From a bacterium (GTDB taxonomy: Bacteria; Patescibacteriota; Patescibacteriia; JAACEG01; JAGUWE01), in contig JAZDOD010000009.1 of NCBI GenBank assembly GCA_043798995.1, positions 80,015 to 135,117 on the forward strand: a DNA stretch of 55,103 nucleotides, in the 5' to 3' direction. Positions 5,606 to 55,085 of this stretch are shown one piece after another. Each line of letters opens with the position of its first letter. The stretch's first letter is position 1. Below the pieces are notes generated by a model. That model was given only the letters and a program-made list of their open reading frames with translations, made no database searches and had not been told where the DNA came from. The position numbers and the translations under genes are program-made.

Positions 5606-6376
5606 ATGGAAGTGATTATTACTAAAAATTATCAAAAAATGTCCGAGGTTGCTGCTTCGGTTGTGGCTAGGGCTATTGCCAAAAATAAAAAGATTGTTTT
5701 GGCCTTGCCGACCGGCAAAACACCGCGGGAATTGTACCGCTTTTTAATTAAAGCTTATCGGCGCGGCAGTATTAGTTTTAAAAAAGCAGTTGCTTTTAAT
5801 TTAGATGAATACATCGGTTTAAGTCCGGCGGATAAAGCCAGTTATCATTTTTATATGAAAGAATTTTTTTTTAAGTTTATTGATATAAAATCTAAAAATA
5901 TTTTTATTCCCGATGGCCAAGCCCGCCTGCCAAGGCCTGGAGCCAAGGCGACTGGCGGGCAGGCTAAAAATTTAGCCGCCGAATGCCGCCGTTACGAGAG
6001 AGAAATTAAAAAGCAAAATGGTCTTGATTTGGCAATTTTGGGTTTAGGCAAAAATGATCATCTTGGCTTTAACGAGCCGGGCTCAAGTTTTAATTCCAAA
6101 ACCAGAGTAGTTAAATTATCAGAAGCGACGAGAAAAACCAACGCTAAATTTTTTAAAGGCAGAAAAATTCCCAACTTTGCTATTACTATGGGACTTAAAA
6201 CAATTTTTTCCGCCAAAAAGATAATCCTTCTGGCTTCGGGCAGGGAAAAAGCTGAAGCGGTTAAAAAAGCTCTAAAAGCGCCGATTAGTCCTCAAATTCC
6301 AGCTTCAATTTTGCGTCAACACCCCAATGTGATTTTTATTCTTGACCGCGCCGCGGCTTTCAAAATAAAAAAATAA
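5606..6376 (+). CDS. nagB: Glucosamine-6-phosphate deaminase (carries a 14-codon repeat-derived insertion)
   Basis: LALPTGKTP, DEYIGL and GLGKNDHLGFNEPGS motifs. The extra segment ARLPRPGAKATGGQ is encoded by the GC-rich element at 5922-5963. Confidence 0.85.
   Translation: MEVIITKNYQKMSEVAASVVARAIAKNKKIVLALPTGKTPRELYRFLIKAYRRGSISFKKAVAFNLDEYIGLSPADKASYHFYMKEFFFKFIDIKSKNIFIPDGQARLPRPGAKATGGQAKNLAAECRRYEREIKKQNGLDLAILGLGKNDHLGFNEPGSSFNSKTRVVKLSEATRKTNAKFFKGRKIPNFAITMGLKTIFSAKKIILLASGREKAEAVKKALKAPISPQIPASILRQHPNVIFILDRAAAFKIKK
5922..5963 (+). repeat. Family B GC-rich element, 42-nt form, in frame inside nagB
   Basis: The sequence is cccgcctgccaaggcctggagccaaggcgactggcgggcagg. It is 42/42 identical to the reverse complement of 15086-15127 in topA, so both copies have the same orientation relative to the coding strand. 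Confidence 0.9.
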
Positions 6377-9638: not shown

Positions 9639-9770
9639 GACATTTGACATTTGCCTGCCCGCCAATTGCCAATGAGTCACTCGGTGATTTTAACAGATAT
9701 TTTAATAAAAAGCTTGATAAAATTTGGAAGCTTTCTTAATTGGCTTTGGCAGGCGGGAGCTTTGAGATTT
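9639..9770. repeat. Family B element, long intergenic form (reverse orientation relative to the nagB copy)
   Basis: GACATTTGACATTTG-CCTGCCCGCCAATTGCC, then ~74 nt of AT-rich filling, then AATTGGCTTTGGCAGGCGGG-AGCTTTG. Both ends match the ends of the 42-nt form (15/17 and 16/17 nt). Confidence 0.8.
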
Positions 9771-13144: not shown

Positions 13145-15436
13145 CTATTTTTCTTCTTGTGGTTTTTGCCAGGAAACATAATCGCATTTGGGATAGTTTG
13201 AACAGCCGTAGAAGAAACGGCCGCGTTTGCTGCGCCGGCGGACTACTATTCCCTCCTGGCATTTGGGGCATTTGATTTCCTCGCCCTTTTCATCAGTAAT
13301 TTTAAAATTATTATTTAAATGTTTAGTATTTTTGCAATCGGGATAACCAGAGCAGGCCAAAAATTTGCCAAAACGGCCCGTTTTAACAACCATTGGCTGG
13401 CCGCACTTTTCGCAAATAACATTGGTTTCTTCATTATTTTCATTTTGAGATTTTTTCTCGCCATTTTCACCGGCCCTGGCTAAATCTTGGGTATATTTGC
13501 AGCGCGGAAAATCAGAGCAGGCCAAAAATTTGCCAAAACGGCTCATTCTGGTAACTAAAGGCGAGCCGCATTTGGGACATTTTTCCTCAGTCACCTCACC
13601 CAGGATTTTTTCTTTGGAAAGCGTCTTTTCTTTTTGGGTTAAATTTTTCTTAAAGGGCTCATAGAAATCAGCAATCACCGGCTGCCAGGCAGTTTCTCCC
13701 TGGGCAATTTTATCAAAGTCATCTTCCATTTTAGCCGTAAACTGGTAGTCAACTATTTGAGAAAAATGTTCAGTTAAAAGATCGGTCACTAAGAAAGCAA
13801 CCTCGGTTGGTTTTAAACGGCCGGTTTCTTTTAGGATATAACCGCGATCCTGAATGGTGCTGATAATCGGCGCGTAAGTTGAAGGCCGGCCAATGCCGTA
13901 ACTTTCCAATTTTTTAATGAGTCCCGCTTCTGAATAGCGAGCCGGTGGCTGGGTGAAATGCTGATTATTTTTTATCTCAAGAAGAAGCAAGTCGTCGCCC
14001 GCTTTAACTTGGGGTAGAATCGTTTCACTGGTGGCAGTTTGATAAATTTTTAAAAAGCCCTTAAATTTGATTATCTGGCCATTAGCCAGAAAAATGTAAG
14101 GCGTCTTTTGGGCCTCAATTTCCAAAGCGGTCTGATCAAAAAAAGCATCGGTCATCTGGGAGGCGACTGTCTTTTGCCAGATTAATTGATAGAGTTTAGC
14201 TTGGTTTTTATCTAAATAATTTTTGATTTTTTCCGGCTCCCGGAAAACACTGGTTGGCCTGATTGCTTCATGGGCTTCTTGGGCTAGTTTGGCTTTGGTT
14301 TTATAATATTTTTTGCCCCTGAAGTAGCCGGATTCAAAATTATTTTTAAGGTAACTCGCAACCTCGTCTAAAAATTTTTCTGCCAGATTCAGCGAGTCGG
14401 TTCGCATATAAGTAATTAAACCAACAGAGCCCTCCTCTCCTAATTCAATGCCTTCATAAAGTTGCTGGGCTAACCTCATTGTTTGTTTGGCCGAGAAACC
14501 AAAACGGCGGTTGGCTTCCTGCTGCAGAGTGGAGGTGATAAAAGGCGGCGGGCTTTTGCGGATAACTTCTTTTTTTCTGACATTTAAAACTTGATACGAA
14601 GCATTTTTTAAGTTTTTTAAAATTTCCTGGGACTGAGTCTCATTTTTTATTTCTAACTTATCAATTTTCTGACCGTTGATTTTATCAAGATGCGCGGAAA
14701 AAGATTCTCCGCTGGCTTTTTGGGTTTTGCCATCAAGCGGATCAAAAATAGCGTCAATGGTCCAATATTCATCTTTTTTAAAGGCCTGGATTTCTTTTTC
14801 TCTTTCAACGATTAATTTGACCGCCACCGATTGGACGCGGCCGGCTGAAAGTTTTTTGGTGACTTTACGCCAAAGAAAAGGCGAGAGTTCATAGCCGACT
14901 AAGCGGTCTAAAATGCGCCGGGCTTGCTGGGAATCAACTAAATTCAAATTAAGATCGCGCGGTTCTTTTAAGGCATTGTCAATCGCTTCTTTGGTAATTT
15001 CATGAAAAACAATACGTTCTACCTTACTTTTGACTTTTGCCTGCCCCGTAGCTCCGCCAGTTGGCGGATGCTTCGGGGACTTTTGCCTGCCCGCCAGTCG
15101 CCTTGGCTCCAGGCCTTGGCAGGCGGGACTTTTGACCTCATTCAAGCCCAAGGCTTGGGTGAGGTGCCAGGCAATAGCTTCGCCTTCGCGATCTTCATCG
15201 GTGGCTAGAATTATTTTATCGGCTGATTTCAGTTGAGCCTTTAAATCTTTGACAACTTTTTTAGCTTTGCCGGGGATAATATAATGAGGCGCAAAATTGT
15301 TTTCAATCTCAATACCCATTTTGTTTTTAGGCAAATCTCGGACATGGCCGTAGGAAGAAGCGACCTGATAATTTTTATCCAAAAATTTGGCAATAGTTTT
15401 GGCTTTGGTTGGCGATTCAACGATAACGAGATTCAT
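13145..15436 (-). CDS. topA: DNA topoisomerase I with C-terminal zinc ribbons (carries a 34-codon repeat-derived insertion)
   Basis: TOPRIM start MNLVIVESPTKAKTI and DEDREGEAIAWH. Several CPKCG/CEKCG zinc ribbons. The extra segment SPACQGLEPRRLAGRQKSPKHPPTGGATGQAKVK lies between ...GLNEVK and SKVERIVFHEITK. Confidence 0.9.
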   Translation of the reverse strand: MNLVIVESPTKAKTIAKFLDKNYQVASSYGHVRDLPKNKMGIEIENNFAPHYIIPGKAKKVVKDLKAQLKSADKIILATDEDREGEAIAWHLTQALGLNEVKSPACQGLEPRRLAGRQKSPKHPPTGGATGQAKVKSKVERIVFHEITKEAIDNALKEPRDLNLNLVDSQQARRILDRLVGYELSPFLWRKVTKKLSAGRVQSVAVKLIVEREKEIQAFKKDEYWTIDAIFDPLDGKTQKASGESFSAHLDKINGQKIDKLEIKNETQSQEILKNLKNASYQVLNVRKKEVIRKSPPPFITSTLQQEANRRFGFSAKQTMRLAQQLYEGIELGEEGSVGLITYMRTDSLNLAEKFLDEVASYLKNNFESGYFRGKKYYKTKAKLAQEAHEAIRPTSVFREPEKIKNYLDKNQAKLYQLIWQKTVASQMTDAFFDQTALEIEAQKTPYIFLANGQIIKFKGFLKIYQTATSETILPQVKAGDDLLLLEIKNNQHFTQPPARYSEAGLIKKLESYGIGRPSTYAPIISTIQDRGYILKETGRLKPTEVAFLVTDLLTEHFSQIVDYQFTAKMEDDFDKIAQGETAWQPVIADFYEPFKKNLTQKEKTLSKEKILGEVTEEKCPKCGSPLVTRMSRFGKFLACSDFPRCKYTQDLARAGENGEKKSQNENNEETNVICEKCGQPMVVKTGRFGKFLACSGYPDCKNTKHLNNNFKITDEKGEEIKCPKCQEGIVVRRRSKRGRFFYGCSNYPKCDYVSWQKPQEEK
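15026..15134 (-). repeat. Composite GC-rich insertion in topA: [ACTTTTG]x2 - 39-nt hairpin - [ACTTTTG] - 42-nt family B element - [ACTTTTG]
   Basis: 15040-15078 is CCTGCC-CCGTAGC-TCCGCCA-GT-TGGCGGA-TGCTT-CGGGG. 15086-15127 is the exact reverse complement of 5922-5963. The net added length is 102 nt (34 codons). Confidence 0.9.
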
Positions 15437-15459
15437 AATTTAGAATTTAAAATTTAAAA

Positions 15460-16551
15460 TTAACGGGCAAGAACATAATTCATTCCCCCTAAATTTCTGA
15501 CCAAACCCTTAAGTTCCATCAGCGCGAGGGTGGAATTAATTTGAGCTGGGGGTAGTTTACTAAGCTGAATAATTTTGTCAATATGGAGAGGATTTTTACT
15601 GAGCAGTTCAATAATATTTTTTTCTTCCTCGTTTTCAGCAATGATTTTTTGATTTTCTAAAAAGGCGGTTGCCTGTTTAAGATTTAAACTTTCCAGAATA
15701 TCAGAGGCAGAGGTTGTGGGTTTGGCCCCCAGTTTAATTAAATTATTAGCGCCCTGGGAATTTCGGCTGTAAATATTGCCGGGTACGGCAAAAACGTCAC
15801 GATTTTGCTCCAGAGCAAAATTGGCCGTAATTAAGGTGCCGCTTTTTTCTGGCGCTTCAATAACCAGCACCCCCAAAGAAAGTCCGGAAATCAGACGATT
15901 GCGGGCCGGAAAATGCTGCTTAAGTGGCATGGTGCCCGGCGGATATTCAGAAAGAAGAAGACCCCCCTTTTCAATTATTTTTTTAGCTAAAAAGCGGTTG
16001 CTGCTTGGATAAATATTTTGCTTATCAAGACCTGAACCTAAAACAGCAATGGTTTTGCCGCCTGCTTCCAGGGCGGTCTGGTGAGCTAAGGCATCAATGC
16101 CTAAAGCTAAGCCACTGACAATTGTTAGGCCATTTTGGACCAAGTCCCAGGTCATTTCTCTTGCCACCTGCTGGCCGTAACTGGTTGGTTTTCTGGTGCC
16201 GACCACGGCCAGAGAAAATTCATTGGCAACTTTTAAATCACCGGAGAAAAAAAGAAGAGGTGGCGGTTGATAAATTTCCCGAAGCAGTTTGGGGTAATCC
16301 GGCTCTAAAATAGTTATAATTTCCAAACCTTCTTTTTTAAGTTCCTCCCATTCCCTATTAGGATTAATTTCTTTTCGTTTAATCAAAAGATTTTCCAGAG
16401 CTTCCTGATCCAAACCGGCTTCTCTCAGTGCTCCGGCTTCAGCCTGCCAGGCGGTTTTTAAATCGGGAAAAGCTCGCAGTAATTTTTTTAATTTTTGCGG
16501 CCCGATTTTATTGATTTTGGCAAAAGTAAGCCAATATTTTTTATCATCCAT
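15460..16551 (-). CDS. dprA: DNA-processing protein DprA (Smf)
   Basis: VVGTRKPTSYG and GLALGIDALAHQ motifs plus a C-terminal wHTH. ATG 16551 is preferred over GTG 16569, which lies inside an inverted repeat. Confidence 0.85.
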   Translation of the reverse strand: MDDKKYWLTFAKINKIGPQKLKKLLRAFPDLKTAWQAEAGALREAGLDQEALENLLIKRKEINPNREWEELKKEGLEIITILEPDYPKLLREIYQPPPLLFFSGDLKVANEFSLAVVGTRKPTSYGQQVAREMTWDLVQNGLTIVSGLALGIDALAHQTALEAGGKTIAVLGSGLDKQNIYPSSNRFLAKKIIEKGGLLLSEYPPGTMPLKQHFPARNRLISGLSLGVLVIEAPEKSGTLITANFALEQNRDVFAVPGNIYSRNSQGANNLIKLGAKPTTSASDILESLNLKQATAFLENQKIIAENEEEKNIIELLSKNPLHIDKIIQLSKLPPAQINSTLALMELKGLVRNLGGMNYVLAR

Positions 16552-16561
16552 AAGCTCTTGA

Positions 16562-16706
16562 CCCCCCACCTATTCCAATGTAATACTTCTATAACTGAAC
16601 CTTTGATAGGCGAAGCCGCGCTCCGTCGCTAAAGCTTTGAAGCGTCGGCGACCTTACGGCTCTGTTCCTCGGCAAAAGAAAATAATTCTTTAGAATAGGT
16701 GGGGGG
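16562..16706. repeat. Perfect 14-bp inverted repeat (CCCCCCACCTATTC / GAATAGGTGGGGGG) bracketing 117 nt with a GC-rich core
   Basis: The arms are at 16562-16575 and 16693-16706. The core contains AGCCG...GTCGC...GCGAC...CGGCT nested stems. Confidence 0.8.
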
Positions 16707-16735
16707 TTGACAAATTTTGTTATTTATGCTAAGTT
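16707..16735 (+). promoter_or_regulatory. Sigma70-type promoter (TTGACA - 17 nt - TGcTAAGTT) with no downstream + strand CDS
   Basis: TTGACA at 16707-16712; extended -10 TGCTAAGTT at 16727-16735. Confidence 0.5.
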
Positions 16736-16741
16736 ACTTTG

Positions 16742-16880
16742 ATAAAGATTAAGGTTAATTTCTGGCTTTTTGTCTACCAGTAGCGAACGCTGAAGGTCAC
16801 CCCTCCTAACCAGAGGCAAGTAGCACCAAGTTAAGGTTTGCTGATGTATTTTAGCTAAACCTTCACTGGTAGGCAATAAA
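16742..16880 (+). ncRNA. Unassigned structured RNA candidate (strand uncertain)
   Basis: Closing stems CTACCAG/CTGGTAG (16774/16866) and TGAAGGT/ACCTTCA (16791/16859). A mutually exclusive alternative AAGGTTT/AAACCTT exists at 16833/16857. No ORF is present. Confidence 0.3.
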
Positions 16881-16921
16881 TTGGATGTTAATATTAAAAA
16901 TACTAGGGAAAATCTAGTGTT

Positions 16922-17461
16922 TTAGTTTTTTAACAGTTTAATAATTTTTTGGCTTAAAACTTCGAAGAGGTCATTAAGCTGTTTGAACTCGTCTTTTTTA
17001 AAATTTTCTAAAATAAAACATTCGGTCGGAAAATTTAGGCTTTTAATTTTTGGTCCAACACCGATACGCACTCGCCAAAAATTTTTAGTTTTCAGTCGGT
17101 CAATAATTGACTGGACGCCGCGATGACCGGCTGAGCCGCGGTTAAAACTCGTTTTAAATTTGCCTAAAGGCAAATCAATCTCATCGTGGATAATTATTAT
17201 ATTTTCCGGTTTTATTTTGTAATAAGCGCTGATTTTTTTAACTGACTCACCCGAATTATTCATATAATCCTGGGGCAGAGCAACAATAATTTTTTTTTCA
17301 TCTAATTTGGTTTGGCTGATTTTGGCTTGGAAATTTTTATTTTGTTTTACGGCCGGCCAGGTAAAATCTTTCATTATTTTTTCAATTAATAAAAAGCCGA
17401 CATTGTGGCGAGTAAGAGAATATTTTTTGCCAGGATTACCCAAACCAACTAAAAGTTTCAT
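16922..17461 (-). CDS. pth: Peptidyl-tRNA hydrolase
   Basis: MKLLVGLGNPGKKY, TRHNVGF, and GSAGHRGVQSI. Confidence 0.9.
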   Translation of the reverse strand: MKLLVGLGNPGKKYSLTRHNVGFLLIEKIMKDFTWPAVKQNKNFQAKISQTKLDEKKIIVALPQDYMNNSGESVKKISAYYKIKPENIIIIHDEIDLPLGKFKTSFNRGSAGHRGVQSIIDRLKTKNFWRVRIGVGPKIKSLNFPTECFILENFKKDEFKQLNDLFEVLSQKIIKLLKN

Positions 17462-18792
17462 AAAGAAATATTTTTAACTTTAATTTTTATATTCAGACCG
17501 CTTAGATTAATTTTTTTTCTCAAGCGGTTTTCCAAATATTTTAAATAAGAAGTATGAAGAGTATCTCGGGGACCGATAAAAACGGTAAATTCGGGCGGCG
17601 TGATTCTGGTCTGGCGAAAGTCATAGATTTTCGGATGTTTTTTACCCTTGGCGCGAAGCGGTTTATGAAAAAGGCGTGCTTCACGGATGAAACCCTTGAG
17701 CTCTTCTTCCGTCAGGGTTATTTCGTTAGTTTTATAAATCGCAACAGCGGTTTCTAAAATTTTTTGCAGCCCCACTCCGCTTTTGGCCGAAACAAAAAAA
17801 ACCGGCGACCATTTAAGCGGTGCCAATATCGTTTGGGCATAAGCAGTAAAATCATTTCTTGATTTTTGATCAAAATTAGTCAAAAGATCAATTTTATTGA
17901 CAGCTATCAAAGCTGGTTTTTGCGACTTTAAAATTAAATCAGATAGTTTTATATCCTGTTTGGTTATTTTTTGGCTTACATCCAGAAGCAAAATTGCCAT
18001 ATTCGCTTTTTTAAGAGCCCTAAGGCTTTTGTTAATGATGATTTTTTCAATCTGCGTAGTCCATTTTTTAATACCGGCCGTATCAATGATAATAAGCGGA
18101 GTTTGATTGAAAATTATTTCTCGCTCTTGCGGCTCTAAAGTTGTTTGCGGCCGGGGGCTGGTCAAAATTTCCTCACGGCCTAATAATTTATTAAGCAGAC
18201 TTGATTTGCCGACATTGGGCTTGCCAATCAGAGCGATTTTGATTTTTTTTATCTCAGGGGTCGATTTTTTAAATTTAAGGCGGCTAATTATTTTATCCAG
18301 TAAATCGCCACTGCCGCTGCCGTTGGTTGCCGAAACAAAAAAAGGCGAACCAAGCCCTAATTTTTCTAAACCAGCTTCTTTGGCAGTATTTCTTATTCTT
18401 TGGTTGTCAATTTTATTGGCAACAAAAATTATCGGCTTTTGCAAGAGGCGGATTTTTTTTAAAACCGCTCGGTCGTCAGCGGTTATGCCGATCTGGCCAT
18501 CAATTAAAAAAGCAATTAAACTAGCTTTTTTCACTACTGCCAAAGATTGTTGAGCGCTTTTTTCTTCAAGTTCATTTTTTTTAACAATATCAAAACCAGC
18601 CGTGTCAGCCAAAAAAAAGGTTTTGGCGCGCCAAAGGCAAGCGCCGTAATTAACATCGCGAGTGGTGCCGGGAAAGGGAGAAATAATGGCTTTACTTTCT
18701 TCAATCAGTCGGTTAAAAAGCGAAGATTTACCGACATTTTTTCGGCCAACGATGGCAACTAATGGTTCTATTTTTGTGAGGGTTAATGTCAT
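17458..18792 (-). CDS. der: Ribosome-associated GTPase Der (EngA), two G domains + KH-like domain
   Basis: GRKNVGKSSLFN and GKPNVGKSSLLN P-loops; DTAG twice; NKID twice. Confidence 0.9.
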   Translation of the reverse strand: MTLTLTKIEPLVAIVGRKNVGKSSLFNRLIEESKAIISPFPGTTRDVNYGACLWRAKTFFLADTAGFDIVKKNELEEKSAQQSLAVVKKASLIAFLIDGQIGITADDRAVLKKIRLLQKPIIFVANKIDNQRIRNTAKEAGLEKLGLGSPFFVSATNGSGSGDLLDKIISRLKFKKSTPEIKKIKIALIGKPNVGKSSLLNKLLGREEILTSPRPQTTLEPQEREIIFNQTPLIIIDTAGIKKWTTQIEKIIINKSLRALKKANMAILLLDVSQKITKQDIKLSDLILKSQKPALIAVNKIDLLTNFDQKSRNDFTAYAQTILAPLKWSPVFFVSAKSGVGLQKILETAVAIYKTNEITLTEEELKGFIREARLFHKPLRAKGKKHPKIYDFRQTRITPPEFTVFIGPRDTLHTSYLKYLENRLRKKINLSGLNIKIKVKNISL

Positions 18793-18800
18793 TTTAAAAT

Positions 18801-20264
18801 TTATTGATTTCCATTTGCCAAATCACCGCTGGCATTTTGTCCTAAGATAATAACAAAATTAGCGTTGCGGTTGAGATCTAGCGAAGAAACAAGAGGGGAG
18901 TCGGTAGATAAAGAAAAAACATTAATTTCCTCTATTTGACTTTTTTGTTTTAGGAAATTTTTGATTTTTTCTAAATTTTCAATTTCTCGTCCGCTGGTTA
19001 AATCATAAATAGCGGTCTGTAGATAATCTTGGCGCGAAGCATTGCCGATATGAATAATATTAAAATCATTTTTTTCAACTTCGGTGGCGAAACTTGCCGC
19101 TAAACCGTTGATTTTAGTGCCGTTTTGGATTTCAATTGCTATTTTTGGTTCTGAAGCGTTAATTGTGGTTGGCAGCCCTAATTTTTTGTTTGTTGTTGAA
19201 AGCAACCCCCGGGCAATCATCTGTAGTTCTGAAAAATCCCCCCTTTTAGGCAATAAAACATAAGCGCTATTTTCAGTATTGGCAAAAAGCGGCCCATCTG
19301 TACCATTATCTAAAACTTTGTTGGCAATATTTTCCCCTTTAGCGTTTTTGGTTAATTTAGCCAGTTTTATCATTTGCCAGCTTTCAAGATTGGTTTTGAT
19401 ATGCCCGCCTAAATCTTCTAAAATTGCCGAAATTTTGACTGGGTTTAAAATAAAGGAAACGGAAAAAACTTTGTTTTTGACTGCTTCAATAACTTTTTGT
19501 TGGCGCAATCCTCGGGCAAAATCCGAACCCTCACCATTATCACCGTGGCGTGAACGAGCGTATTTTAAGGCCGCGTCGCCGGCCATTTTTTGCCAGCCGG
19601 GGCGGAAAGAAACGGTTTGATATAAATCATTATCAGTTGGATAAGAATTATCGGTAAAACTTCGTTCAACATAAATATCAACTCCGCCCAAATCATCTAT
19701 TACTTTTCTAAAACCTTCAAAATCAGCTCTTATATAATAATGTATAGGCAGATCAAAAACCCCACTGACAGTTTCCGCGGCCAAAATCGGTCCTTGGCCA
19801 CGGCCTTGGGCTTCACCCAAAGCATTGGCGTCATTAATTTTTCGCCAGCCGTGACCAGGTATGGGGACATACAAATCACGAGGAATTGAGAGAAGCGCTA
19901 CTTTAGGAACAGAGGGCTGGATACTGGCAATAATAATTGTGTCTGATAAATTCGGACCATCGTGACCTTGGCCGCCGATTCCTAAAATAAGAATATTAAC
20001 ACGGTCTTTTCCCTCGCCTTTTAATAATTTATCCGAACCTAAAATCAAATATTTCAAATCAACAATCATTTTTATTTCCTCAACCAAATTATTTCGAAAA
20101 GTGGCCTCCGGCCCATTCTTAGAAGCGATCAGCCGGTAAGTAAAAATTCCCAAAAACAAAAAGAAAGTCAAAGCCGAGACAATGACAACCCTGCCGGCCA
20201 GAAGCAGTTTGTTTTGATTTTTTGGTCTTAGGTGTTCAGTTAAGTTTATTTTAAATTTTTCCAT
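18801..20264 (-). CDS. LytR-CpsA-Psr (LCP) family protein with C-terminal LytR_C-like domain
   Basis: N-terminal TM helix; RVNILILGIGGQGHDGPNLSDTIIIASI and SIPRDLYV motifs. Confidence 0.8.
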   Translation of the reverse strand: MEKFKINLTEHLRPKNQNKLLLAGRVVIVSALTFFLFLGIFTYRLIASKNGPEATFRNNLVEEIKMIVDLKYLILGSDKLLKGEGKDRVNILILGIGGQGHDGPNLSDTIIIASIQPSVPKVALLSIPRDLYVPIPGHGWRKINDANALGEAQGRGQGPILAAETVSGVFDLPIHYYIRADFEGFRKVIDDLGGVDIYVERSFTDNSYPTDNDLYQTVSFRPGWQKMAGDAALKYARSRHGDNGEGSDFARGLRQQKVIEAVKNKVFSVSFILNPVKISAILEDLGGHIKTNLESWQMIKLAKLTKNAKGENIANKVLDNGTDGPLFANTENSAYVLLPKRGDFSELQMIARGLLSTTNKKLGLPTTINASEPKIAIEIQNGTKINGLAASFATEVEKNDFNIIHIGNASRQDYLQTAIYDLTSGREIENLEKIKNFLKQKSQIEEINVFSLSTDSPLVSSLDLNRNANFVIILGQNASGDLANGNQ

Positions 20265-20436
20265 AGGGTGTCTAAAAGTATATTACAACAAAAAATTATA
20301 ATTGCCAATTTTTTTAAGGGTTAACAAAGGGTTTAAACCCTTTTTGCTCTTTCTTATTTTTTATGTTAAAATAAATTTTAATAGAGATTAGTTTAAGTTT
20401 ACCATGTTGGTAAGATATCTGACAGCGGCATTTCTT

Positions 20437-20543
20437 TACCCCCACACCCAAAAAGCCCCATTTCTCAAGGCAGGAATGAAGGGTGTGAGAAAAATAAATT
20501 CCATAGAAAAGCCCTGCCATTCATGATGGAGTGTGGGGGTTTA
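20437..20543. repeat. Family C repeat, two tandem units closed by AAACCCCCACAC / GTGTGGGGGTTT
   Basis: Unit 1 is CCCACACCC...GGGTGTGAG (20441-20489). Unit 2 is AAAGCCCTGCCATTCATGATGGAGTGTGGGGG (20507-20539). The region explains the spurious ORF 20314-20520. Confidence 0.7.
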
Positions 20544-20579
20544 CTTTGTGCCAAATTGGGCACATAGCTCAGCTGGTTA

Positions 20580-20623
20580 CCCGCCCGACTCGCTGCAGAC
20601 GCAGTTGCGTCGAAGCGGGCGGG
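20580..20623 (+). repeat. 44-nt hairpin block in the D loop (between positions 21 and 22) of the outer tRNA-Val
   Basis: CCCGCCCG-ACTCGC-TGC-AGAC-GCA-GTTGCGTCGAAG-CGGGCGGG, with an 8-bp perfect closing stem. Confidence 0.8.
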
Positions 20624-20639
20624 GAGCGCTACATTCACA

Positions 20640-20743
20640 CCCGCCTGCCTTGGCCGTTTAGCTCAGCTGGTTAGAGCGCTTCGTTCACATCGAAGAGGTC
20701 GAAGGTTCAAATCCTTCAACGGTCATAGTTTTAGGCGGGCAGG
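20640..20743 (+). repeat. 104-nt family B element in the anticodon loop of the outer tRNA-Val, carrying a complete tRNA
   Basis: CCCGCCTGCC-TT-[tRNA 20652-20725]-TAGTTTTA-GGCGGGCAGG. The termini pair over 10 positions with one C.A mismatch and one U.G wobble. Confidence 0.85.
20652..20725 (+). tRNA. tRNA-Val (anticodon CAC), nested
   Basis: GGCCGTT-TA-GCTC-AGCTGGTTA-GAGC-G-CTTCG-TTCACAT-CGAAG-AGGTC-GAAGG-TTCAAAT-CCTTC-AACGGTC-A. Confidence 0.95.
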
Positions 20744-20761
20744 TTGTAGAGGTCTCTGGTT

Positions 20762-20792
20762 TGACCCTGCGGGTCATCTCCCGTAGGGATGA
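20762..20792 (+). repeat. 31-nt double mini-hairpin block in the T loop (between positions 55 and 56) of the outer tRNA-Val
   Basis: TGACCC-TGC-GGGTCA followed by TCTCCC-GTA-GGGATGA. Removing it restores the T loop TTCAAGT. Confidence 0.7.
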
Positions 20793-20878
20793 CAAGTCCA
20801 GATGTGCCCATAAAGATGTTTGGCACTATTTAAGAATTTCATACTTAAAAGATAAAAATCAAATCAATCTTTAGCTGG

Positions 20879-35380: not shown

Positions 35381-35494
35381 CCCCGTAGCAAATCCCAGCG
35401 AAGAGTTGTTATTATTGAATCATTTTAAGGCGAATCCGCCCCACGGCTTTAATTACTACTAAGCGATTGATTTAACTTAGGATTGCTACGGGGT
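35380..35494. repeat. Family D long-range inverted repeat (ACCCCGTAGCAAATCC ... GGATTGCTACGGGGT)
   Basis: The arms are at 35380-95 and 35480-94, with an 84-nt spacer containing GGCG-AATC-CGCC. The right arm abuts a TTGACA box. Confidence 0.75.
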
Positions 35495-45596: not shown

Positions 45597-45694
45597 CCCC
45601 GTAGGAAATCAAAATTACAAATCATTTCTACGAGGCGTATTTAAATAAAAACATTCTAAAAAATAAAGTATTTAATTATTAATTTCCTACGGGG
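45597..45694. repeat. Family D long-range inverted repeat (CCCCGTAGGAAAT ... ATTTCCTACGGGG) ending 1 nt before the ndk ATG
   Basis: 13-bp perfect arms at 45597-609 and 45682-694. A competing partial partner ATTTCTACGAGG lies at 45624-635. Confidence 0.8.
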
Positions 45695-50507: not shown

Positions 50508-51161
50508 ATGGCTAGAAACATCACTAAAAGACAATTCGAGGCACTTAATGTTATTTACCAAAGTATTAAATCGTCCGGTTTTCCGCCATCTATGGCAGAA
50601 ATGCGTAGTAATCTTAGTGTAGCGTCAAATCAATCAATAATCAACCTTTTAAAAGTATTGGAGGAGGAAGGCTGTATTAAAAGAGAAGAAGGTTTAGCGC
50701 GCGGGCTTAAAATTTTGCCTAAAGGTTATAATGCCTTGGGAGTTGATCCTATGGCGCCCGTTGTTGGCGACAGTTCCTGTGGACCGTTCGTTGAGGCCAT
50801 ACAAGAAGTGGGAAAATGGATGAGCTTGCCCGGTACGGTCTGGAAAAATGATGTTTTAGAATCTGAAGAAAAATTTTATGTAATCCGGGTGTATGGCGAC
50901 AGTATGATTAATGCCGGCATTTTTGACGGAGATATGCTTTTGATAAAACAGTCGCGTGAATACAAAAACGGCGATATCGTGGTGGCGCGCGGCGATGATG
51001 GCACTACGGTAAAAAGATTTGTGTCAGAAGACAAAAAAGTTTATTTAAAACCGGAAAATCCGGCCTATAAAAATATTCCTTTTTATGAAGATTTATTCTT
51101 AGACGGAAAAGTCATCGCTAATTTAACTACTTTAAAAAGATTATATGGATCAAAAAATTAA
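50508..51161 (+). CDS. lexA: LexA-type repressor (wHTH + S24 self-cleaving peptidase)
   Basis: ITKRQFEALNVIY...GFPPSMAEM... wHTH; GDSM (Ser) and TVKRF (Lys). The putative cleavage site is SSC-GPF (Cys-Gly). Confidence 0.85.
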   Translation: MARNITKRQFEALNVIYQSIKSSGFPPSMAEMRSNLSVASNQSIINLLKVLEEEGCIKREEGLARGLKILPKGYNALGVDPMAPVVGDSSCGPFVEAIQEVGKWMSLPGTVWKNDVLESEEKFYVIRVYGDSMINAGIFDGDMLLIKQSREYKNGDIVVARGDDGTTVKRFVSEDKKVYLKPENPAYKNIPFYEDLFLDGKVIANLTTLKRLYGSKN

Positions 51162-53082
51162 TAGCGCGGTGCTAAATAAAATTTTTCGCGATCCCGGTAT
51201 TCAATATGGTTTAAAAGAATTTGATAATATTAAGCCGGTTGAAATGTTAGATATTTTTGAAAAAGAAAAAGGGAAATATTATATTAAATGCTTAAAGCGG
51301 GAAAAAGACATATTATTGCTTAATACCGAAAAGAATTTAGCCAAACCGGAAGAAGTAATACGGCAATTATGGCTGTTAAAACTGGCTAAATATTATAATT
51401 ATCCGTTGGATCGCATTGATTTGGAAAAAGATATCCGATTCGGCCATGAAATTCACTCTAAAGCGGCTGATATTATCGTTTATCGCGAAAACAAGGCAAC
51501 GCCGCTCATTATTATTGAAACTAAAAATCCAACCGTGGAAAAAGGTTTGGACCAATTAAAAACCTATATCAATTCCGAAGGCGCGCCCGTAGGAGTTTGG
51601 AGTAACGGCGTGGATAAAGTGGTTTTATATCGCCCCTATCCGCGCGAGTTTCAGACATTGCGCGATTTGCCCCGCGTTGATCAGACGATTGAAGACGTTT
51701 TGGAAGAAAAATTAACTCTTGACGATTTAAAGACGGATTATGATTTAGTAAAGATTTTAAAAATTTTGGAGGAATTAGTTTTGGCCGGCGCCGGTGTTGA
51801 TTCATTTAATGAGATTTTTAAATTGATTTACGCCAAATTATTTGATGAAAAAGAGGCGAAAAAACGCGCGGACAAAGAAGTGTTTTTTAAACAATCCAAA
51901 GACGTCCAGCTCACTTATGATATCGCGAACAGATTATTTCACGGCGCTTGCAATGAATGGCCGGGGATATTTAATACCTATGAAAACATAGAATTATCGC
52001 CAGGGCACTTATCCGTCTGTATCGGTGAGCTGGAAAAAATAAAACTGCTTAATTCTGATTTGGAAGTAATTGACGCGGCTTTTGAATATCTTTTGCCGGA
52101 TGTGGCTAAAGGCAAAAAAGGCCAATATTTTACCCCGCGCCATGTAATTGATATGGCGGTTAAAATGTTAAGCCCCAAAGACAACGAGTATGTTATAGAT
52201 CCGGCTTGCGGCAGCGGCGGCTTTCTTATTCATGCTATGCGTTATGTCTGGAATAATAGCTTAAAACGCGTTGATAAATCCGTCCAAACCGATTATGCCC
52301 GCAAATATGTTTATGGCATAGATTTTGACGATAAGCCGGTAAAAATCGCCCGAGCTATGATGTTAATTGCCGGCGACGGCAAATCGCATATCTTGAAATT
52401 AAATTCTCTGAATACTAAAGAATGGCAAGGCGATGAAAGCGAAAAAGAAAGAGCGCGCGCCGAATTGCGCGAGCGGCTTCATAAATTTGAAGATTACGAT
52501 AAAGATAAAAATAACAAAGAAAATTTTAAATATTTTGATTTTGATATTTTATTATCTAATCCTCCCTTCGCCGGCGAAATTCACGAAACCCCGCTTTTGA
52601 AAGAGTATGAATTGGCTAAAAACGATAAAGGCAAACTGCGCAACAAAATGGAGCGGCATATTTTATTTATTGAGCGCTCGCTTGATTTAGTTAGGCCAGG
52701 CGGGCGGTTAGCGGTAGTTTTACCGCAGGGAGTTTTTAATAATAGCAATATGGCATATGTGCGCGATTATTTATTGGACAAGGCACGAATTTTGGCGGTG
52801 GTGGGTCTTGAAGCGAACACATTTAGGCCCCATGCCGGAGTTAAGACAAGCGTAATTTTCTTGCAGAAATGGGGAGAAAAAGAAAAACTGCCGAAAGACT
52901 ACCCGATTTTTATGGCTGTATCTAAAAAATCAGGCAAAGATAATTCAGGCGAATATGTTTATCGCAAAGACAAAGATGGCAATTTAATTTTTGACGCGCA
53001 AGGCAAAAAGATTCTGGAGCATGATTTGGATGAGATTGCGGGGGAATTTTTGAAATTTATACTACGATATGGGGGGTTATGA
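51145..53082 (+). CDS. Fused restriction nuclease (HsdR_N-type PD-(D/E)xK) and gamma-class N6-adenine DNA methyltransferase, BcgI-like RM subunit
   Basis: AADIIVYRENKATPLIIIETKNP (D...ExK), YFTPRHV, DPACGSGGFL (motif I) and LSNPPFAG (motif IV). The start overlaps the lexA stop by 17 nt. Confidence 0.75.
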   Translation: MDQKINSAVLNKIFRDPGIQYGLKEFDNIKPVEMLDIFEKEKGKYYIKCLKREKDILLLNTEKNLAKPEEVIRQLWLLKLAKYYNYPLDRIDLEKDIRFGHEIHSKAADIIVYRENKATPLIIIETKNPTVEKGLDQLKTYINSEGAPVGVWSNGVDKVVLYRPYPREFQTLRDLPRVDQTIEDVLEEKLTLDDLKTDYDLVKILKILEELVLAGAGVDSFNEIFKLIYAKLFDEKEAKKRADKEVFFKQSKDVQLTYDIANRLFHGACNEWPGIFNTYENIELSPGHLSVCIGELEKIKLLNSDLEVIDAAFEYLLPDVAKGKKGQYFTPRHVIDMAVKMLSPKDNEYVIDPACGSGGFLIHAMRYVWNNSLKRVDKSVQTDYARKYVYGIDFDDKPVKIARAMMLIAGDGKSHILKLNSLNTKEWQGDESEKERARAELRERLHKFEDYDKDKNNKENFKYFDFDILLSNPPFAGEIHETPLLKEYELAKNDKGKLRNKMERHILFIERSLDLVRPGGRLAVVLPQGVFNNSNMAYVRDYLLDKARILAVVGLEANTFRPHAGVKTSVIFLQKWGEKEKLPKDYPIFMAVSKKSGKDNSGEYVYRKDKDGNLIFDAQGKKILEHDLDEIAGEFLKFILRYGGL

Positions 53083-53256
53083 ATTTTTTTGAAAAGGTAA
53101 AAAAATATATTGATAAAATAAAAAACAAGCCATGGCCCACAACGGGCGACGCTTGTTCTCGTTGATACTATGAATAATAGTATCTAAAAAGATTATAATA
53201 TTTTAACAAACACTTGTCAATATAACTGGTGTGGATAACTAAAATACACAAAAAAT

Positions 53257-54687
53257 ATGGTTTTCTCAATAATCCAAAAATCGCAAATTGAAGACACAAA
53301 GCGGCTAGATGCTGAATATTATCAGCCGGAGTATTTAGAAGTGGAGAAAAAACTCAAATCAATTAATACTAAAACGATTGGCGAAATATCAGATAGTGTT
53401 GTAAATTTCGGCGCATACTCGTTATGTAATTATATCCAATGGCAAGATGGTGGAGTGCCTTATTTAAATGTTCAAGATATCAAAGATGGTTATATTGATT
53501 TTGACGATACAAAATTTATTGGCGAAAAAGTAAACGAGATTTTAAAAAAATCAGAAGTAAGCGAAGGACAGGTTATTCTAACGATGGCTGGGACTATCGG
53601 AAATGCCGCGGTAGCACATAAAATTCCTTTAAAGGTAAATTCAAATCAGGCAACCGCAAAGATTACATTAAAAAAAGAAATTTCTCCGTATTTTTTAACG
53701 GCATTTTTAGGTTCATATTATGGTAAAAATCAAATAATTCGTGAAATTGTTAGTAGCGTTCAGCCAAATATATTCTTATTTCAGATTAAAAATTTTAAAG
53801 TTCCAATTGCAACACAAAAAGAACAAAAAGAAATTGAAAAAATCTATATTCACGGATTGGAGGAATTAGAGAACTCTAAATTATTTTATCGCCAAGCCGA
53901 GAATTCATTTTTTAAACAATTAAATTTACAAAATTTTAAAAATGATGGTTTATTGTCCATATCTATAAATTTGGCCGATATAAAAATAGTCAATCGTTTT
54001 GACGCAGAATATTTTAATTCACCTAGCAATAAAATGCTGGCGATAATCAATAAAGGTAAAATTGCCAAACTTAGCGACTTGGTGGAAATGACTAAGGGCG
54101 TTGAGCCCGGGGCGGAAGCGTATCAAGAGCCCTCCGACGCTCCCACCGGCGCTGAAGCTATGGCGGGCAAGGAAACTATGGAGGGTAAAAAGGGGAAGTT
54201 ATTTATCCGCGTCAGCAGTATTTCCAAAGACGGAATTATTAATAAAGACCAAAAATATATAAGCGAAGATTTATATAATGAATATAAAAAAGATTATCAG
54301 CCACAGGTTGGAGAAATATTATTAACTAAAGACGCCAGCCCGGGGATTGCTTGTTTAGTGCGTGAACCGATAGAAGGAATTGTCGCCAGCGGTGTTATGC
54401 GATTAAAAATTAAAGAAAAAATTAATTTGGAATATTTGACACTGGTATTAAATTCTATTGTCGGCCGCCTGCAAGCCGAACGGGATGCCGGCGGGTCAAT
54501 TATCGTCCATTGGAAACCGGAGCAAATAAAAAATTTAGTCGTTCCAATTTTACCCGTTTCAACGCAAAATAAAATTGGCGATTTAATATCGCAATCTTAT
54601 CAGGCGCGCAAAAAAGCGAAAGAATTATTAGAAGAAGCAAAATTAAAGGTTGAGGAAATGATAGTAAATAATCAATCATTAAAATGA
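53257..54687 (+). CDS. hsdS: Restriction-modification specificity subunit (HsdS-type, two TRDs)
   Basis: RLDAEYYQPEY / RFDAEYFNSP repeat starts, and central and C-terminal conserved helices (ATQKEQKEIEKI / STQNKIGDLISQ). Confidence 0.8.
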   Translation: MVFSIIQKSQIEDTKRLDAEYYQPEYLEVEKKLKSINTKTIGEISDSVVNFGAYSLCNYIQWQDGGVPYLNVQDIKDGYIDFDDTKFIGEKVNEILKKSEVSEGQVILTMAGTIGNAAVAHKIPLKVNSNQATAKITLKKEISPYFLTAFLGSYYGKNQIIREIVSSVQPNIFLFQIKNFKVPIATQKEQKEIEKIYIHGLEELENSKLFYRQAENSFFKQLNLQNFKNDGLLSISINLADIKIVNRFDAEYFNSPSNKMLAIINKGKIAKLSDLVEMTKGVEPGAEAYQEPSDAPTGAEAMAGKETMEGKKGKLFIRVSSISKDGIINKDQKYISEDLYNEYKKDYQPQVGEILLTKDASPGIACLVREPIEGIVASGVMRLKIKEKINLEYLTLVLNSIVGRLQAERDAGGSIIVHWKPEQIKNLVVPILPVSTQNKIGDLISQSYQARKKAKELLEEAKLKVEEMIVNNQSLK

Positions 54688-54839
54688 TTATGAGCAATCC
54701 AAAACATCTTTGCCAAAAATGCTGGGAGAAAAAACACGGACCCCTACGGGATACTGAAACCGAAAGTAATATAATGACTTGCGAAGAATGTGGCGAGAGA
54801 AACGAATTTACTATTTTAGATATAGATAAAGATGATTAA
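54684..54839 (+). CDS. 51-aa zinc-ribbon protein, translationally coupled (ATGA) to hsdS
   Basis: MIMSNPKHLCQKCWEKK...MTCEECGERNEF. It is below the ORF-track cutoff. Confidence 0.4.
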   Translation: MIMSNPKHLCQKCWEKKHGPLRDTETESNIMTCEECGERNEFTILDIDKDD

Positions 54840-54844
54840 GTTAA

Positions 54845-54881
54845 TCGCAACCGACATGTACTGCCATTATACTATAGCCCA
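54845..54881 (-). other. tRNA-like 5' fragment (acceptor strand + D arm + anticodon-loop-like TTGCG), truncated at the end of the RM island
   Basis: The - strand reads TGGGCTA-TA-GTAT-AATGGCA-GTAC-A-TGTCG-GTTGCGA. I found no matching 3' half. Confidence 0.4.
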
Positions 54882-54916
54882 TTGAAAAGGTGGGCCGGGT
54901 CCAAGTGCTCGCGTTT

Positions 54917-55024
54917 CGCCCGACTGCCTTGACTATCGGGGTGCGGAGAATTGAACTCCGGCCACATGCACCCCATGCACGCGTACTACCGTTATACTAC
55001 ACCCCGGCAGTCAAGGCGGGCGGG
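54917..55024 (-). repeat. GC clamp enclosing tRNA-Pro (arms CCCGCCCGCCTTGACTGC / TAGTCAAGGCAGTCGGGCG)
   Basis: The arms at 55024-55007 and 54935-54917 pair as GCCTTGACT/AGTCAAGGC, a 4-nt bulge, then CGCCC/GGGCG. The CCCGCCCG terminus is shared with 20580-20623. Confidence 0.8.
54936..55006 (-). tRNA. tRNA-Pro (anticodon GGG)
   Basis: CGGGGTG-TA-GTAT-AACGGTA-GTAC-G-CGTGC-ATGGGGT-GCATG-TGGC-CGGAG-TTCAATT-CTCCG-CACCCCG-A. Confidence 0.9.
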
Positions 55025-55047
55025 CACTACCGTTACGCTACACCCCG
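55025..55047 (-). other. tRNA-like 5' fragment duplicating the acceptor strand + D arm of tRNA-Pro
   Basis: CGGGGTGTAGCGTAACGGTAGTG(C) versus CGGGGTGTAGTATAACGGTAGTAC is 21/24 identical, with compensatory changes at D-stem pair 11:24. Confidence 0.5.
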
Positions 55048-55052
55048 AAATT

Positions 55053-55085
55053 ATTATTCATTATTCATTATTCATTATTCATTAT
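55053..55085. repeat. Tandem heptad repeat (ATTATTC) x4.7
   Basis: attattc repeated head to tail from 55053. Confidence 0.85.

Follow-up and report, generated by a model that had tools for sequence, protein, structure and literature searches.

A tRNA-Pro gene clamped by a GC-rich palindrome and nested in an apparently defunct tRNA-Pro gene of a candidate phyla radiation bacterium

The DNA analyzed here, called the window throughout, is a stretch of 55,103 nt from assembly GCA_043798995.1 (contig JAZDOD010000009.1, positions 80,015-135,117, forward strand), and our subject is a tRNA-Pro(GGG) gene close to its right end, which lies on the minus strand between two complementary GC-rich arms and between parts of other tRNA genes. 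The window is ordinary chromosome with a low GC content and codes for TopA, HisRS, NrdD, FtsA/FtsZ, ParAB, RelA, a release factor (RF), DprA, and ComEC. To judge by its LexA gene, which is nearest to those of Candidatus Falkowbacteria and Magasanikbacteria (candidate phyla radiation, CPR, or Patescibacteria), the host appears to be a Falkowbacteria-like CPR bacterium.

Read along the minus strand, the locus starts with the 5' part of an outer tRNA-Pro gene, which is followed by a left arm (X), the intact inner tRNA-Pro(GGG), a right arm (Y), a GC-rich stretch, a short spacer, and the 5' part of a further tRNA gene (Table 1). The insert between the outer pieces amounts to 108 nt, of which 71 nt are tRNA, and the CCA end of the inner tRNA is not encoded. 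The original prediction had described this as a nested-tRNA locus of the same kind as one around a tRNA-Val gene elsewhere in the window, and this was confirmed, as was the presence of a complete 71-nt tRNA between complementary GC arms. No consensus promoter was found inside the window upstream of position 55047. Directly upstream of the outer 5' fragment, at 55053-55085, there is a perfect 7-nt tandem repeat (ATTATTC, or GAATAAT on the minus strand) in 4.7 copies.

The arms had been proposed to pair over 9 bp, a 4-nt bulge, and 5 bp, whereby the tRNA would form the loop of a clamp. Folding and RNAduplex analysis both bore this out. In the minimum-free-energy fold, X and Y pair over 10 bp (including one G-U), an isolated C-G pair, and then 6 bp (z = -3.1). 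The 30-nt flanks of the tRNA yielded a duplex energy of -31 kcal/mol compared to a median of -7 for 175 tRNAs, which comprise the tRNAs of the window and of 80 related loci. This places the gene in a clear outlier class, with flank duplexes of -20 kcal/mol or below in only 12 of the 175. An identical copy of arm X is present in the metagenome locus L107 (loci outside the window carry L numbers), and near-identical copies occur in L098, L015, L083/L092/L102, L106, and L085. The helix shows a compensatory change, with TAG/CTA in L092 and L015 where the window and L107 have TTG/CAA, and thus it appears to be maintained by compensatory change.

The 23-24 nt in front of the clamp had been reported to duplicate the start of the enclosed tRNA. 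Indeed, 21 of 24 positions are identical to the first 24 nt of the inner gene, and neither the rest of the window nor any of 100 shuffles yielded another match to this fragment with three or fewer mismatches. All three differences keep the D stem paired, as had been claimed, with C-G in place of T-A at 11-24 and G-T in place of A-T at 12-23. The upstream piece therefore seems to have evolved under tRNA constraints at some time. Of the earlier view that it is the 5' part of a second tRNA, we retain that it is a genuine 5' part of a once-constrained tRNA-Pro gene and not debris, whereas its reading as one half of a split gene found no support. It had also been stated that the matching 3' acceptor strand could not be found. 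No 3' half or orphan T arm was detected in the window, whether by searching for TAGCCCA, by scanning for T-arm motifs, or with Rfam at E<=5, but a degraded 28-nt 3' remnant seems to have stayed in place after arm Y. Here, CGCGAGCA and CTTGGACCCGG, separated by a 7-nt gap, align to positions 25-52 of tRNA-Pro(GGG), with the anticodon loop deleted and the alignment breaking off in the T stem. This alignment is suggestive of a remnant of the outer tRNA-Pro 3' part.

These results also bear on the idea of split tRNA genes, in which expressed 5' halves are joined in trans via GC tails as in Nanoarchaeum, the missing outer parts lying elsewhere. Such genes would fit the GC-rich sequence after the 5' pieces and the third piece, which ends in an anticodon loop. 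However, the partner of the GC tail is found in cis directly after the inner tRNA, the stub lies in cis as well, no 3' halves occur in the window, the outer genes of relatives are contiguous, and the host is a bacterium, so that we regard trans-joining as the least probable of all explanations considered here.

When the cassette, i.e., the arms together with the inner tRNA, was removed in silico, ARAGORN detected no tRNA in the outer Pro gene of the window. We also spliced 17 nested loci exhaustively in silico by all 46x46 cut combinations. In this test ARAGORN was too permissive, reading leftover arms as variable arms, and can be used for clear cases only. Among these, L092 and L102 gave a Pro(GGG) tRNA, whereas the window Pro locus, L106, L107, and L015 gave nothing.

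The sister locus of the window contains an outer tRNA-Val(CAC) with three inserts in the D, anticodon, and T loops, the second of which encloses a further tRNA-Val(CAC). The CCCGCCCG start of the Pro arm had been noted to recur there, and it does open the D-loop insert at 20580. The second insert leads to a palindromic repeat family with dispersed copies and conserved terminal inverted repeats. Termini of 10 nt are common to two 42-nt and two 104-nt copies in the window (Table 1). Both 42-nt copies (CCCGCCTGCC...GGCGGGCAGG) are located in sense orientation in variable protein loops, and both host open reading frames (ORFs) stay open. The Pro locus and Val insert 1 have variant CCCGCCCG(CC) arms, which are also found in other genomes, and hairpin elements related to the window family are present in relatives, where a perfect-arm hairpin scan across the loci missed imperfect family members owing to its 9-mer criterion. 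From their sequence, the arms of the Pro cassette appear to be members of this small palindromic repeat family. Further elements of about 100-147 nt with GC-rich inverted repeats occur at 20439-20539, 16561-16707, 35381-35493, and 45597-45694. Their families have the termini CCCCCACAC...GTGTGGGGG, ACCCCCCACC..., and CCCCGTAGNAAATC..., and the CCCCCACAC...GTGTGGGGG family is also present in L065 (three copies), L083, and L092.

Related loci were collected from one genome per species with the tRNA-Pro 5' sequence as query, which resulted in 80 loci, nearly all from CPR. A clamped tRNA-Pro and/or flanking tRNA parts were observed in about 13 of these 80 species-representative loci. The others, including that of the Falkowbacteria genome L051, have a plain tRNA-Pro. 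Nesting reaches up to four levels, and the innermost gene is intact in every case. A metagenome scan with the arm plus the tRNA start as query gave mostly chance matches from high-GC genomes and seven informative low-GC loci. On viral contigs there was neither a clamped tRNA-Pro nor any such tRNA at all.

The clearest counterparts are L083, L092, and L102, where the arm CCCGCCCGCCTAGCTTGC is inserted after GGTAGTA, between 24 and 25, which is also the insertion position of the window. There, GGTAGTA is followed by CCCGCCCGCC..., tRNA-Pro(GGG), ...GGGCGCGG, and CGCAAGG. In all three the outer tRNA-Pro(GGG) is complete, and removal of the insert in silico gives a perfect cloverleaf. Given relatives with this insertion in an outer gene that is still complete, the window copy may be regarded as a decayed version. 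The cassette (X, tRNA, and Y) is identical at 112 of 112 positions among the three loci, while 2/23 and 4/48 positions vary among them in the outer exons; the flanks of L102 and L083 differ at only 3/977. In L107, arms identical to those of the window (the right one being TAGTCAAGGCAGTCGGGCGGGG, with a last GGG that Y of the window lacks) surround a different, 76-nt tRNA-Pro(TGG), and the outer gene, whose anticodon loop contains the cassette, is degenerate and without a T arm. Decayed outer genes are found at the window Pro locus and in L106, L107, L012, L050, and L015, whereas L098 and L085 form nests three and four levels deep, whose outer layers carry extra hairpins and deletions. Six loci have their insert between positions 24 and 25. 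A second junction type in the anticodon loop, where the insert starts with CC(C)GCC after ...YTG and ends with GGCGGG before TGAAGG, is found in at least 8 loci, and its outer genes differ in sequence and length class. Recurrent insertion sites were seen only within tRNA-Pro genes. A tRNA-Arg(TCT) with a strong GC clamp (TGCCCGCCAATGCC...GGCGATGGCAGGTGGG) is present beside a tRNA-Pro in L017/L057 at 5937-6009, without a recognizable outer Arg gene; on account of this gene, clamping seems to reach beyond Pro and Val.

Starting from the observed anatomy of the locus, the repeat family, the complete and decayed outer genes of relatives, and the recurrent insertion sites, we consider it probable that a palindromic DNA cassette with a replacement tRNA entered a cognate tRNA gene, whereupon the outer gene decayed. 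In this scenario, a DNA-level insertion between 24 and 25 of an older tRNA-Pro would have brought in the cassette and split the gene into the 5' piece at 55047-55025 and a 3' piece. The loss of the old gene would have been free of cost, because the cassette brought a complete tRNA-Pro, and decay would have left the 28-nt stub of the 3' piece. Transcription would enter from upstream of 55047. In the RNA, the arms would pair as a leader-trailer stem of about 16 bp stacked under the inner acceptor stem, RNase P at the 5' side and RNase Z or another 3' endonuclease would release tRNA-Pro(GGG), and the CCA-adding enzyme would complete it, whereby the outer pieces would be functionless by-products. 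Since DprA and ComEC are encoded in the window, uptake and recombination of foreign alleles would be possible.

Several features argue for such a cassette. Copies of the repeat family are apparently translated inside ORFs. Arms and cargo seem to be separable, as the comparison of the window with L107 suggests, and in L083, L092, and L102 conservation of the cassette appears to exceed that of the outer exons by far. Outer genes seem to decay while the innermost one always stays intact, the same insertion sites appear to recur in outer genes of different sequence, and the anticodons of inner and outer genes look redundant. Neither a bulge-helix-bulge (BHB) motif, in which 4 bp lie between two 3-nt bulges, nor a group I core could be recognized, which also points to the DNA level. 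The cassette would seem to prefer tRNA-Pro targets.

Other observations weigh against a mobile cassette. Domain scans revealed no transposase, integrase, or homing endonuclease among the window ORFs, and no partner transposase for the palindromic repeats (e.g., of RAYT or IS200/IS605 type) is encoded within the 55-kb window. Across the copies, neither a target-site duplication nor a target motif recurred consistently. The TopA copy has CAAAAGT on both sides, but the other copies are without such a repeat. A second hairpin of 35 nt (15044-15078) follows the 42-nt element in TopA, and the 7-mer CAAAAGT occurs before, between, and after both inserts. Among the relatives, no orthologous empty site was found that would directly prove mobility. 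The alignment score of the stub was equalled by only 5 of 2000 shuffles, but it is the best of five comparisons and thus moderately significant, which is why we treat the stub as suggestive. Moreover, the exons of the outer tRNA-Val are flawless despite three precisely delimited inserts, all inserts keep to the loops of the cloverleaf or the junctions of its helices, where introns at the RNA level would also be found, and the outer-exon differences among L083, L092, and L102 all fall on positions that a working tRNA tolerates. The latter pattern would also be expected from selection on a spliced outer tRNA.

It could therefore be that the inserts are introns at the RNA level, which a cleavage-ligation pathway removes such that one transcript gives rise to inner and outer tRNAs. 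The confinement of inserts to loops or junctions and the tolerated exon changes would be in line with this, as would the perfect cloverleaf restored by exact excision at the outer Val gene with its three inserts, L092, and L102. At the third level of L085 and in L003, a Pro anticodon loop of 7 nt is regained when TAAA/TGAA is removed along with the insert. However, the outer 3' half of the window Pro locus is gone, and many other outer genes have deletions. By direct reading, there is no BHB geometry at the window Pro or Val junctions, where the arm helix abuts the exon ends, and the TGAAGG-junction class has a 1x2 internal loop in place of a BHB. A group I core, which would span about 200 nt or more, gave no Rfam match either at the gathering threshold or with E<=5. 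In the common anticodon-loop class (L029, L009, L063), none of the cuts tried restores a Pro anticodon, the same elements are found in frame in ORFs, where they are apparently translated and not removed, and the anticodons are redundant (GGG in GGG, CAC in CAC). Two specific candidates were rejected. Excision of a BHB intron of the archaeal/eukaryal type at the window Pro locus gives no tRNA, and a canonical 37/38 intron at the junction of ...TTCTTG and TGAAGGA... would place an implausible CTT or CTC anticodon on a proline tRNA body. Among the scanned ORFs of the 55-kb window, there is no splicing endonuclease or RtcB-type ligase domain. Overall, we consider RNA-level removal unlikely, and the same holds for its specific form in which CPR would excise and re-ligate hairpin-clamped inserts by a protein-dependent, non-group-I mechanism, with Val, L092, and L102 as multi-product genes and the Pro locus as a decayed example. 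Splicing of the outer gene is thus unlikely at the window Pro locus, whereas it is possible elsewhere.

Slightly more credit, though still little, may be given to an origin in situ without any mobile cassette, by recombination, template switching, or gene conversion among neighboring tRNA-Pro paralogues and resident hairpins. Such paralogues are often adjacent and have their first 24 nt in common, L066, L102, and L098 represent clusters of partial duplicates, and the outer exons of L092 are identical to its own inner gene, which suggests gene conversion. What an in-situ origin leaves unexplained, however, is that the window and L107 have identical arms with different cargo and sites, that the same junction is used in outer genes of different sequence and length class, and that identical solo copies are dispersed inside ORFs. 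A DNA-level cassette followed by decay of the outer gene thus stays our preferred explanation.

The remaining part of the locus is the third fragment and its neighborhood. The closest matches to the third fragment are outer or inner Pro genes of relatives, and its D arm is of the Pro-family type. An Ala (TGC) anticodon in this fragment is doubtful, since the terminal ...TGTCG GTTG is similar to the breakpoint of other nested Pro genes. It borders a restriction-modification (RM) module at 50508-54839 (plus strand), in which the beginning of an HSDR_N_2/N6-methyltransferase gene is overlapped by LexA; next come HsdS and a zinc-ribbon ORF of 51 aa, the latter on the strand opposite to the tRNA fragments. 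The fragment had been described as ending exactly at the end of this ORF, but it stops 5 nt short of it (54845 versus the ORF stop at 54839). A GC-rich stretch of about 80 nt within HsdS (54090-54172, plus strand) encodes the low-complexity linker EPGAEAYQEPSDAPTGAEAMAGKE and may represent a tolerated insertion.

The order LexA, methyltransferase, HsdS, and zinc-ribbon ORF is kept in every relative fetched, with a LexA identity of 76-85%. The module hosts are Falkowbacteria/Magasanikbacteria-like genomes, and variable genes (NYN, DUF3800) are found in its middle. The small ORF of the window is 61% identical to its counterpart in L128. Following the small ORF, relatives have a conserved non-coding element of about 120 nt (...TAGATAGAGCGAGCGGGGGTGGAGG...GGCGAAATTATCGCC...), which ends in a terminator hairpin (Table 1), and in L130 and L132 whole tRNA-Pro genes, convergent to the module, come after this element. 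In the window this element is missing, and all that is present of a tRNA at this place are its first 35-38 nt. The simplest account would be that the third fragment is a separate, older tRNA whose 3' half was lost by a local deletion together with the approximately 120-nt element. It is also possible that it was itself once an invaded outer gene, because its end resembles the breakpoint of the second junction type. In L127/L128, a diversity-generating retroelement (DGR)-like pair (bAvd and reverse transcriptase) and resolvase/recombinase genes are located between the RM module and tRNA-Pro(GGG) (16627-20402).

The original prediction had considered that insertion of the RM island cut the outer gene. 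This does not agree with the conservation of the module beside LexA in all relatives examined, which suggests that it is ancestral and not a recent insertion. In the related scenario, an integrase-mediated RM island inserted into a tRNA gene and left att-site duplications, which would be the fragments seen here. Integration into tRNA genes is a classic pattern that commonly leaves partial tRNA copies as scars, and the last fragment does abut the RM genes. However, the window encodes no integrase, the Pro 5' fragment is only 18 nt away from the tRNA with inverted and not direct repeats around it, and simple site-specific recombination would give flanking direct repeats rather than nesting. Together with the conserved position of the module, this largely refutes att-site duplication, which we regard as very improbable.

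Table 1. Coordinates of the tRNA parts, arms, and repeat elements (window positions unless a locus is named)
Feature	Position	Strand	Remarks
5' part (positions 1-23/24) of outer, apparently defunct tRNA-Pro	55047-55025	-	CGGGGTGTAGCGTAACGGTAGTG; 21/24 to inner tRNA, unique in window, D-stem pairing kept
Left GC arm X	55024-55007	-	CCCGCCCGCCTTGACTGC; pairs with arm Y
Intact inner tRNA-Pro(GGG), 71 nt, presumed functional	55006-54936	-	ARAGORN; Rfam RF00005, 57.6 bits; perfect cloverleaf
Right GC arm Y	54935-54917	-	TAGTCAAGGCAGTCGGGCG; complementary to X; without last GGG present in L107
Putative decayed stub of outer tRNA-Pro 3' part, 28 nt, GC-rich	54916-54889	-	AAACGCGAGCACTTGGACCCGGCCCACC; anticodon loop and most of T arm deleted
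Spacer TTTTCAA	54888-54882	-	Direct reading
5' part (positions 1 to ~35-38) of further tRNA	54881-54845	-	TGGGCTATAGTATAATGGCAGTACATGTCGGTTGCGA; Pro-family D arm; truncated beside zinc-ribbon ORF
Outer tRNA-Val(CAC) with three inserts	20558-20810	+	Excision of the three in silico gives perfect tRNA-Val(CAC)
Val insert 1, hairpin, D loop	20580-20623	+	CCCGCCCG...CGGGCGGG; direct reading
Val insert 2, 104-nt cassette at 37/38	20640-20743	+	Termini CCCGCCTGCC...GGCGGGCAGG; encloses tRNA-Val(CAC) at 20652-20725 (annotated tRNA)
Val insert 3, hairpin, T loop	20762-20792	+	Direct reading
42-nt solo palindromic element	5922-5963	+	In frame in NagB-like ORF; termini as in Val cassette
42-nt solo element	15086-15127	-	Identical to 5922-5963 copy; in frame in variable loop of TopA
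104-nt intergenic element	9654-9757	-	Termini CCCGCCTGCC...GGCGGGCAGG
~120-nt non-coding element	L128 14809-14940; L132 13611-13740; L130 ~14900-15030; L124 ~15417-15480		No Rfam match

If the proposed cassette is real, CPR would host a tiny selfish element, or a recurrent rearrangement, that invades tRNA genes while bringing a spare copy, which would leave dead layers around one live gene. Stray tRNA fragments and GC hairpins in CPR genomes would find an explanation, and tRNA annotation as well as completeness estimates based on tRNA counts would need care across a very large bacterial group. The disrupted, split, and intron-rich tRNA genes known from archaea would also gain a parallel in bacteria, and the late, mobile acquisition of tRNA introns or splits would become directly testable in a second domain. 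Splicing of the outer genes would, on the other hand, amount to the first tRNA intron system in Bacteria that is not self-splicing. The Val locus is the best candidate of the window for asking whether such inserts are spliced.

Among known systems, the repeat family resembles the Rickettsia palindromic elements (RPEs), reportedly described by Ogata et al. in 2000, and the REPIN/MITE-type repeats, reportedly treated by Bertels and Rainey in 2011. Like these, it consists of short GC-rich hairpins with conserved termini that occur in many copies, in frame in protein genes as well as in RNA genes, and have no transposase of their own. Unlike RPEs and REPINs, some copies here carry a complete tRNA in the hairpin loop and are found repeatedly inside a tRNA gene for the same amino acid, and neither a consistent target-site duplication nor, within the window, a partner transposase was found. 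A second functional RNA inside the insert of a tRNA gene is also seen in the archaeal tRNA-Trp intron, which encodes a C/D box small RNA (sRNA), is spliced by the BHB machinery, and leaves a functional host tRNA. Here, in contrast, the enclosed RNA is a tRNA and the host gene appears defunct. Tiny as it is, the cassette further recalls tRNA-targeting integrative elements with a replacement tRNA segment, which Williams is said to have described in 2002. Both hit a conserved tRNA gene, bring along sequence that keeps a working copy, and leave tRNA fragments. Those elements, however, span kilobases, encode an integrase, restore the gene by a partial copy, and generate direct repeats, whereas the cassette of about 110 nt carries a whole tRNA, is nested, and has inverted arms. 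tRNA fragments are discussed in PMC9897764.

Parallels in archaea include tRNA introns at non-canonical positions and the mobile tRNA introns of Thermoproteales (Fujishima et al. 2010, as cited in PMC10714607). As in these, several inserts may occur per gene in the D, anticodon, and T loops, related inserts recur at other sites or genes, and their removal restores the cloverleaf. The differences are the bacterial host, the lack of a BHB and of a known splicing endonuclease, the whole tRNA held by the insert, and the many outer genes that are visibly dead. In the literature searched, neither nested nor hairpin-interrupted tRNA genes are described for CPR, and what a meeting report mentions is limited to disrupted tRNAs of archaea and rRNA introns of CPR. 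In the split and tri-split tRNA genes of Nanoarchaeum and Caldivirga (PMC2650326), the GC-rich sequence after the 5' part likewise pairs with sequence before the 3' part, and breaks near 25/26 and in the anticodon loop are known there. However, the complementary arm described here lies in cis around another tRNA, and the 3' parts are adjacent or decayed. As far as can be told, the repeated nesting of a hairpin cassette, with a whole tRNA as its cargo, in cognate tRNA genes would be new compared to these systems.

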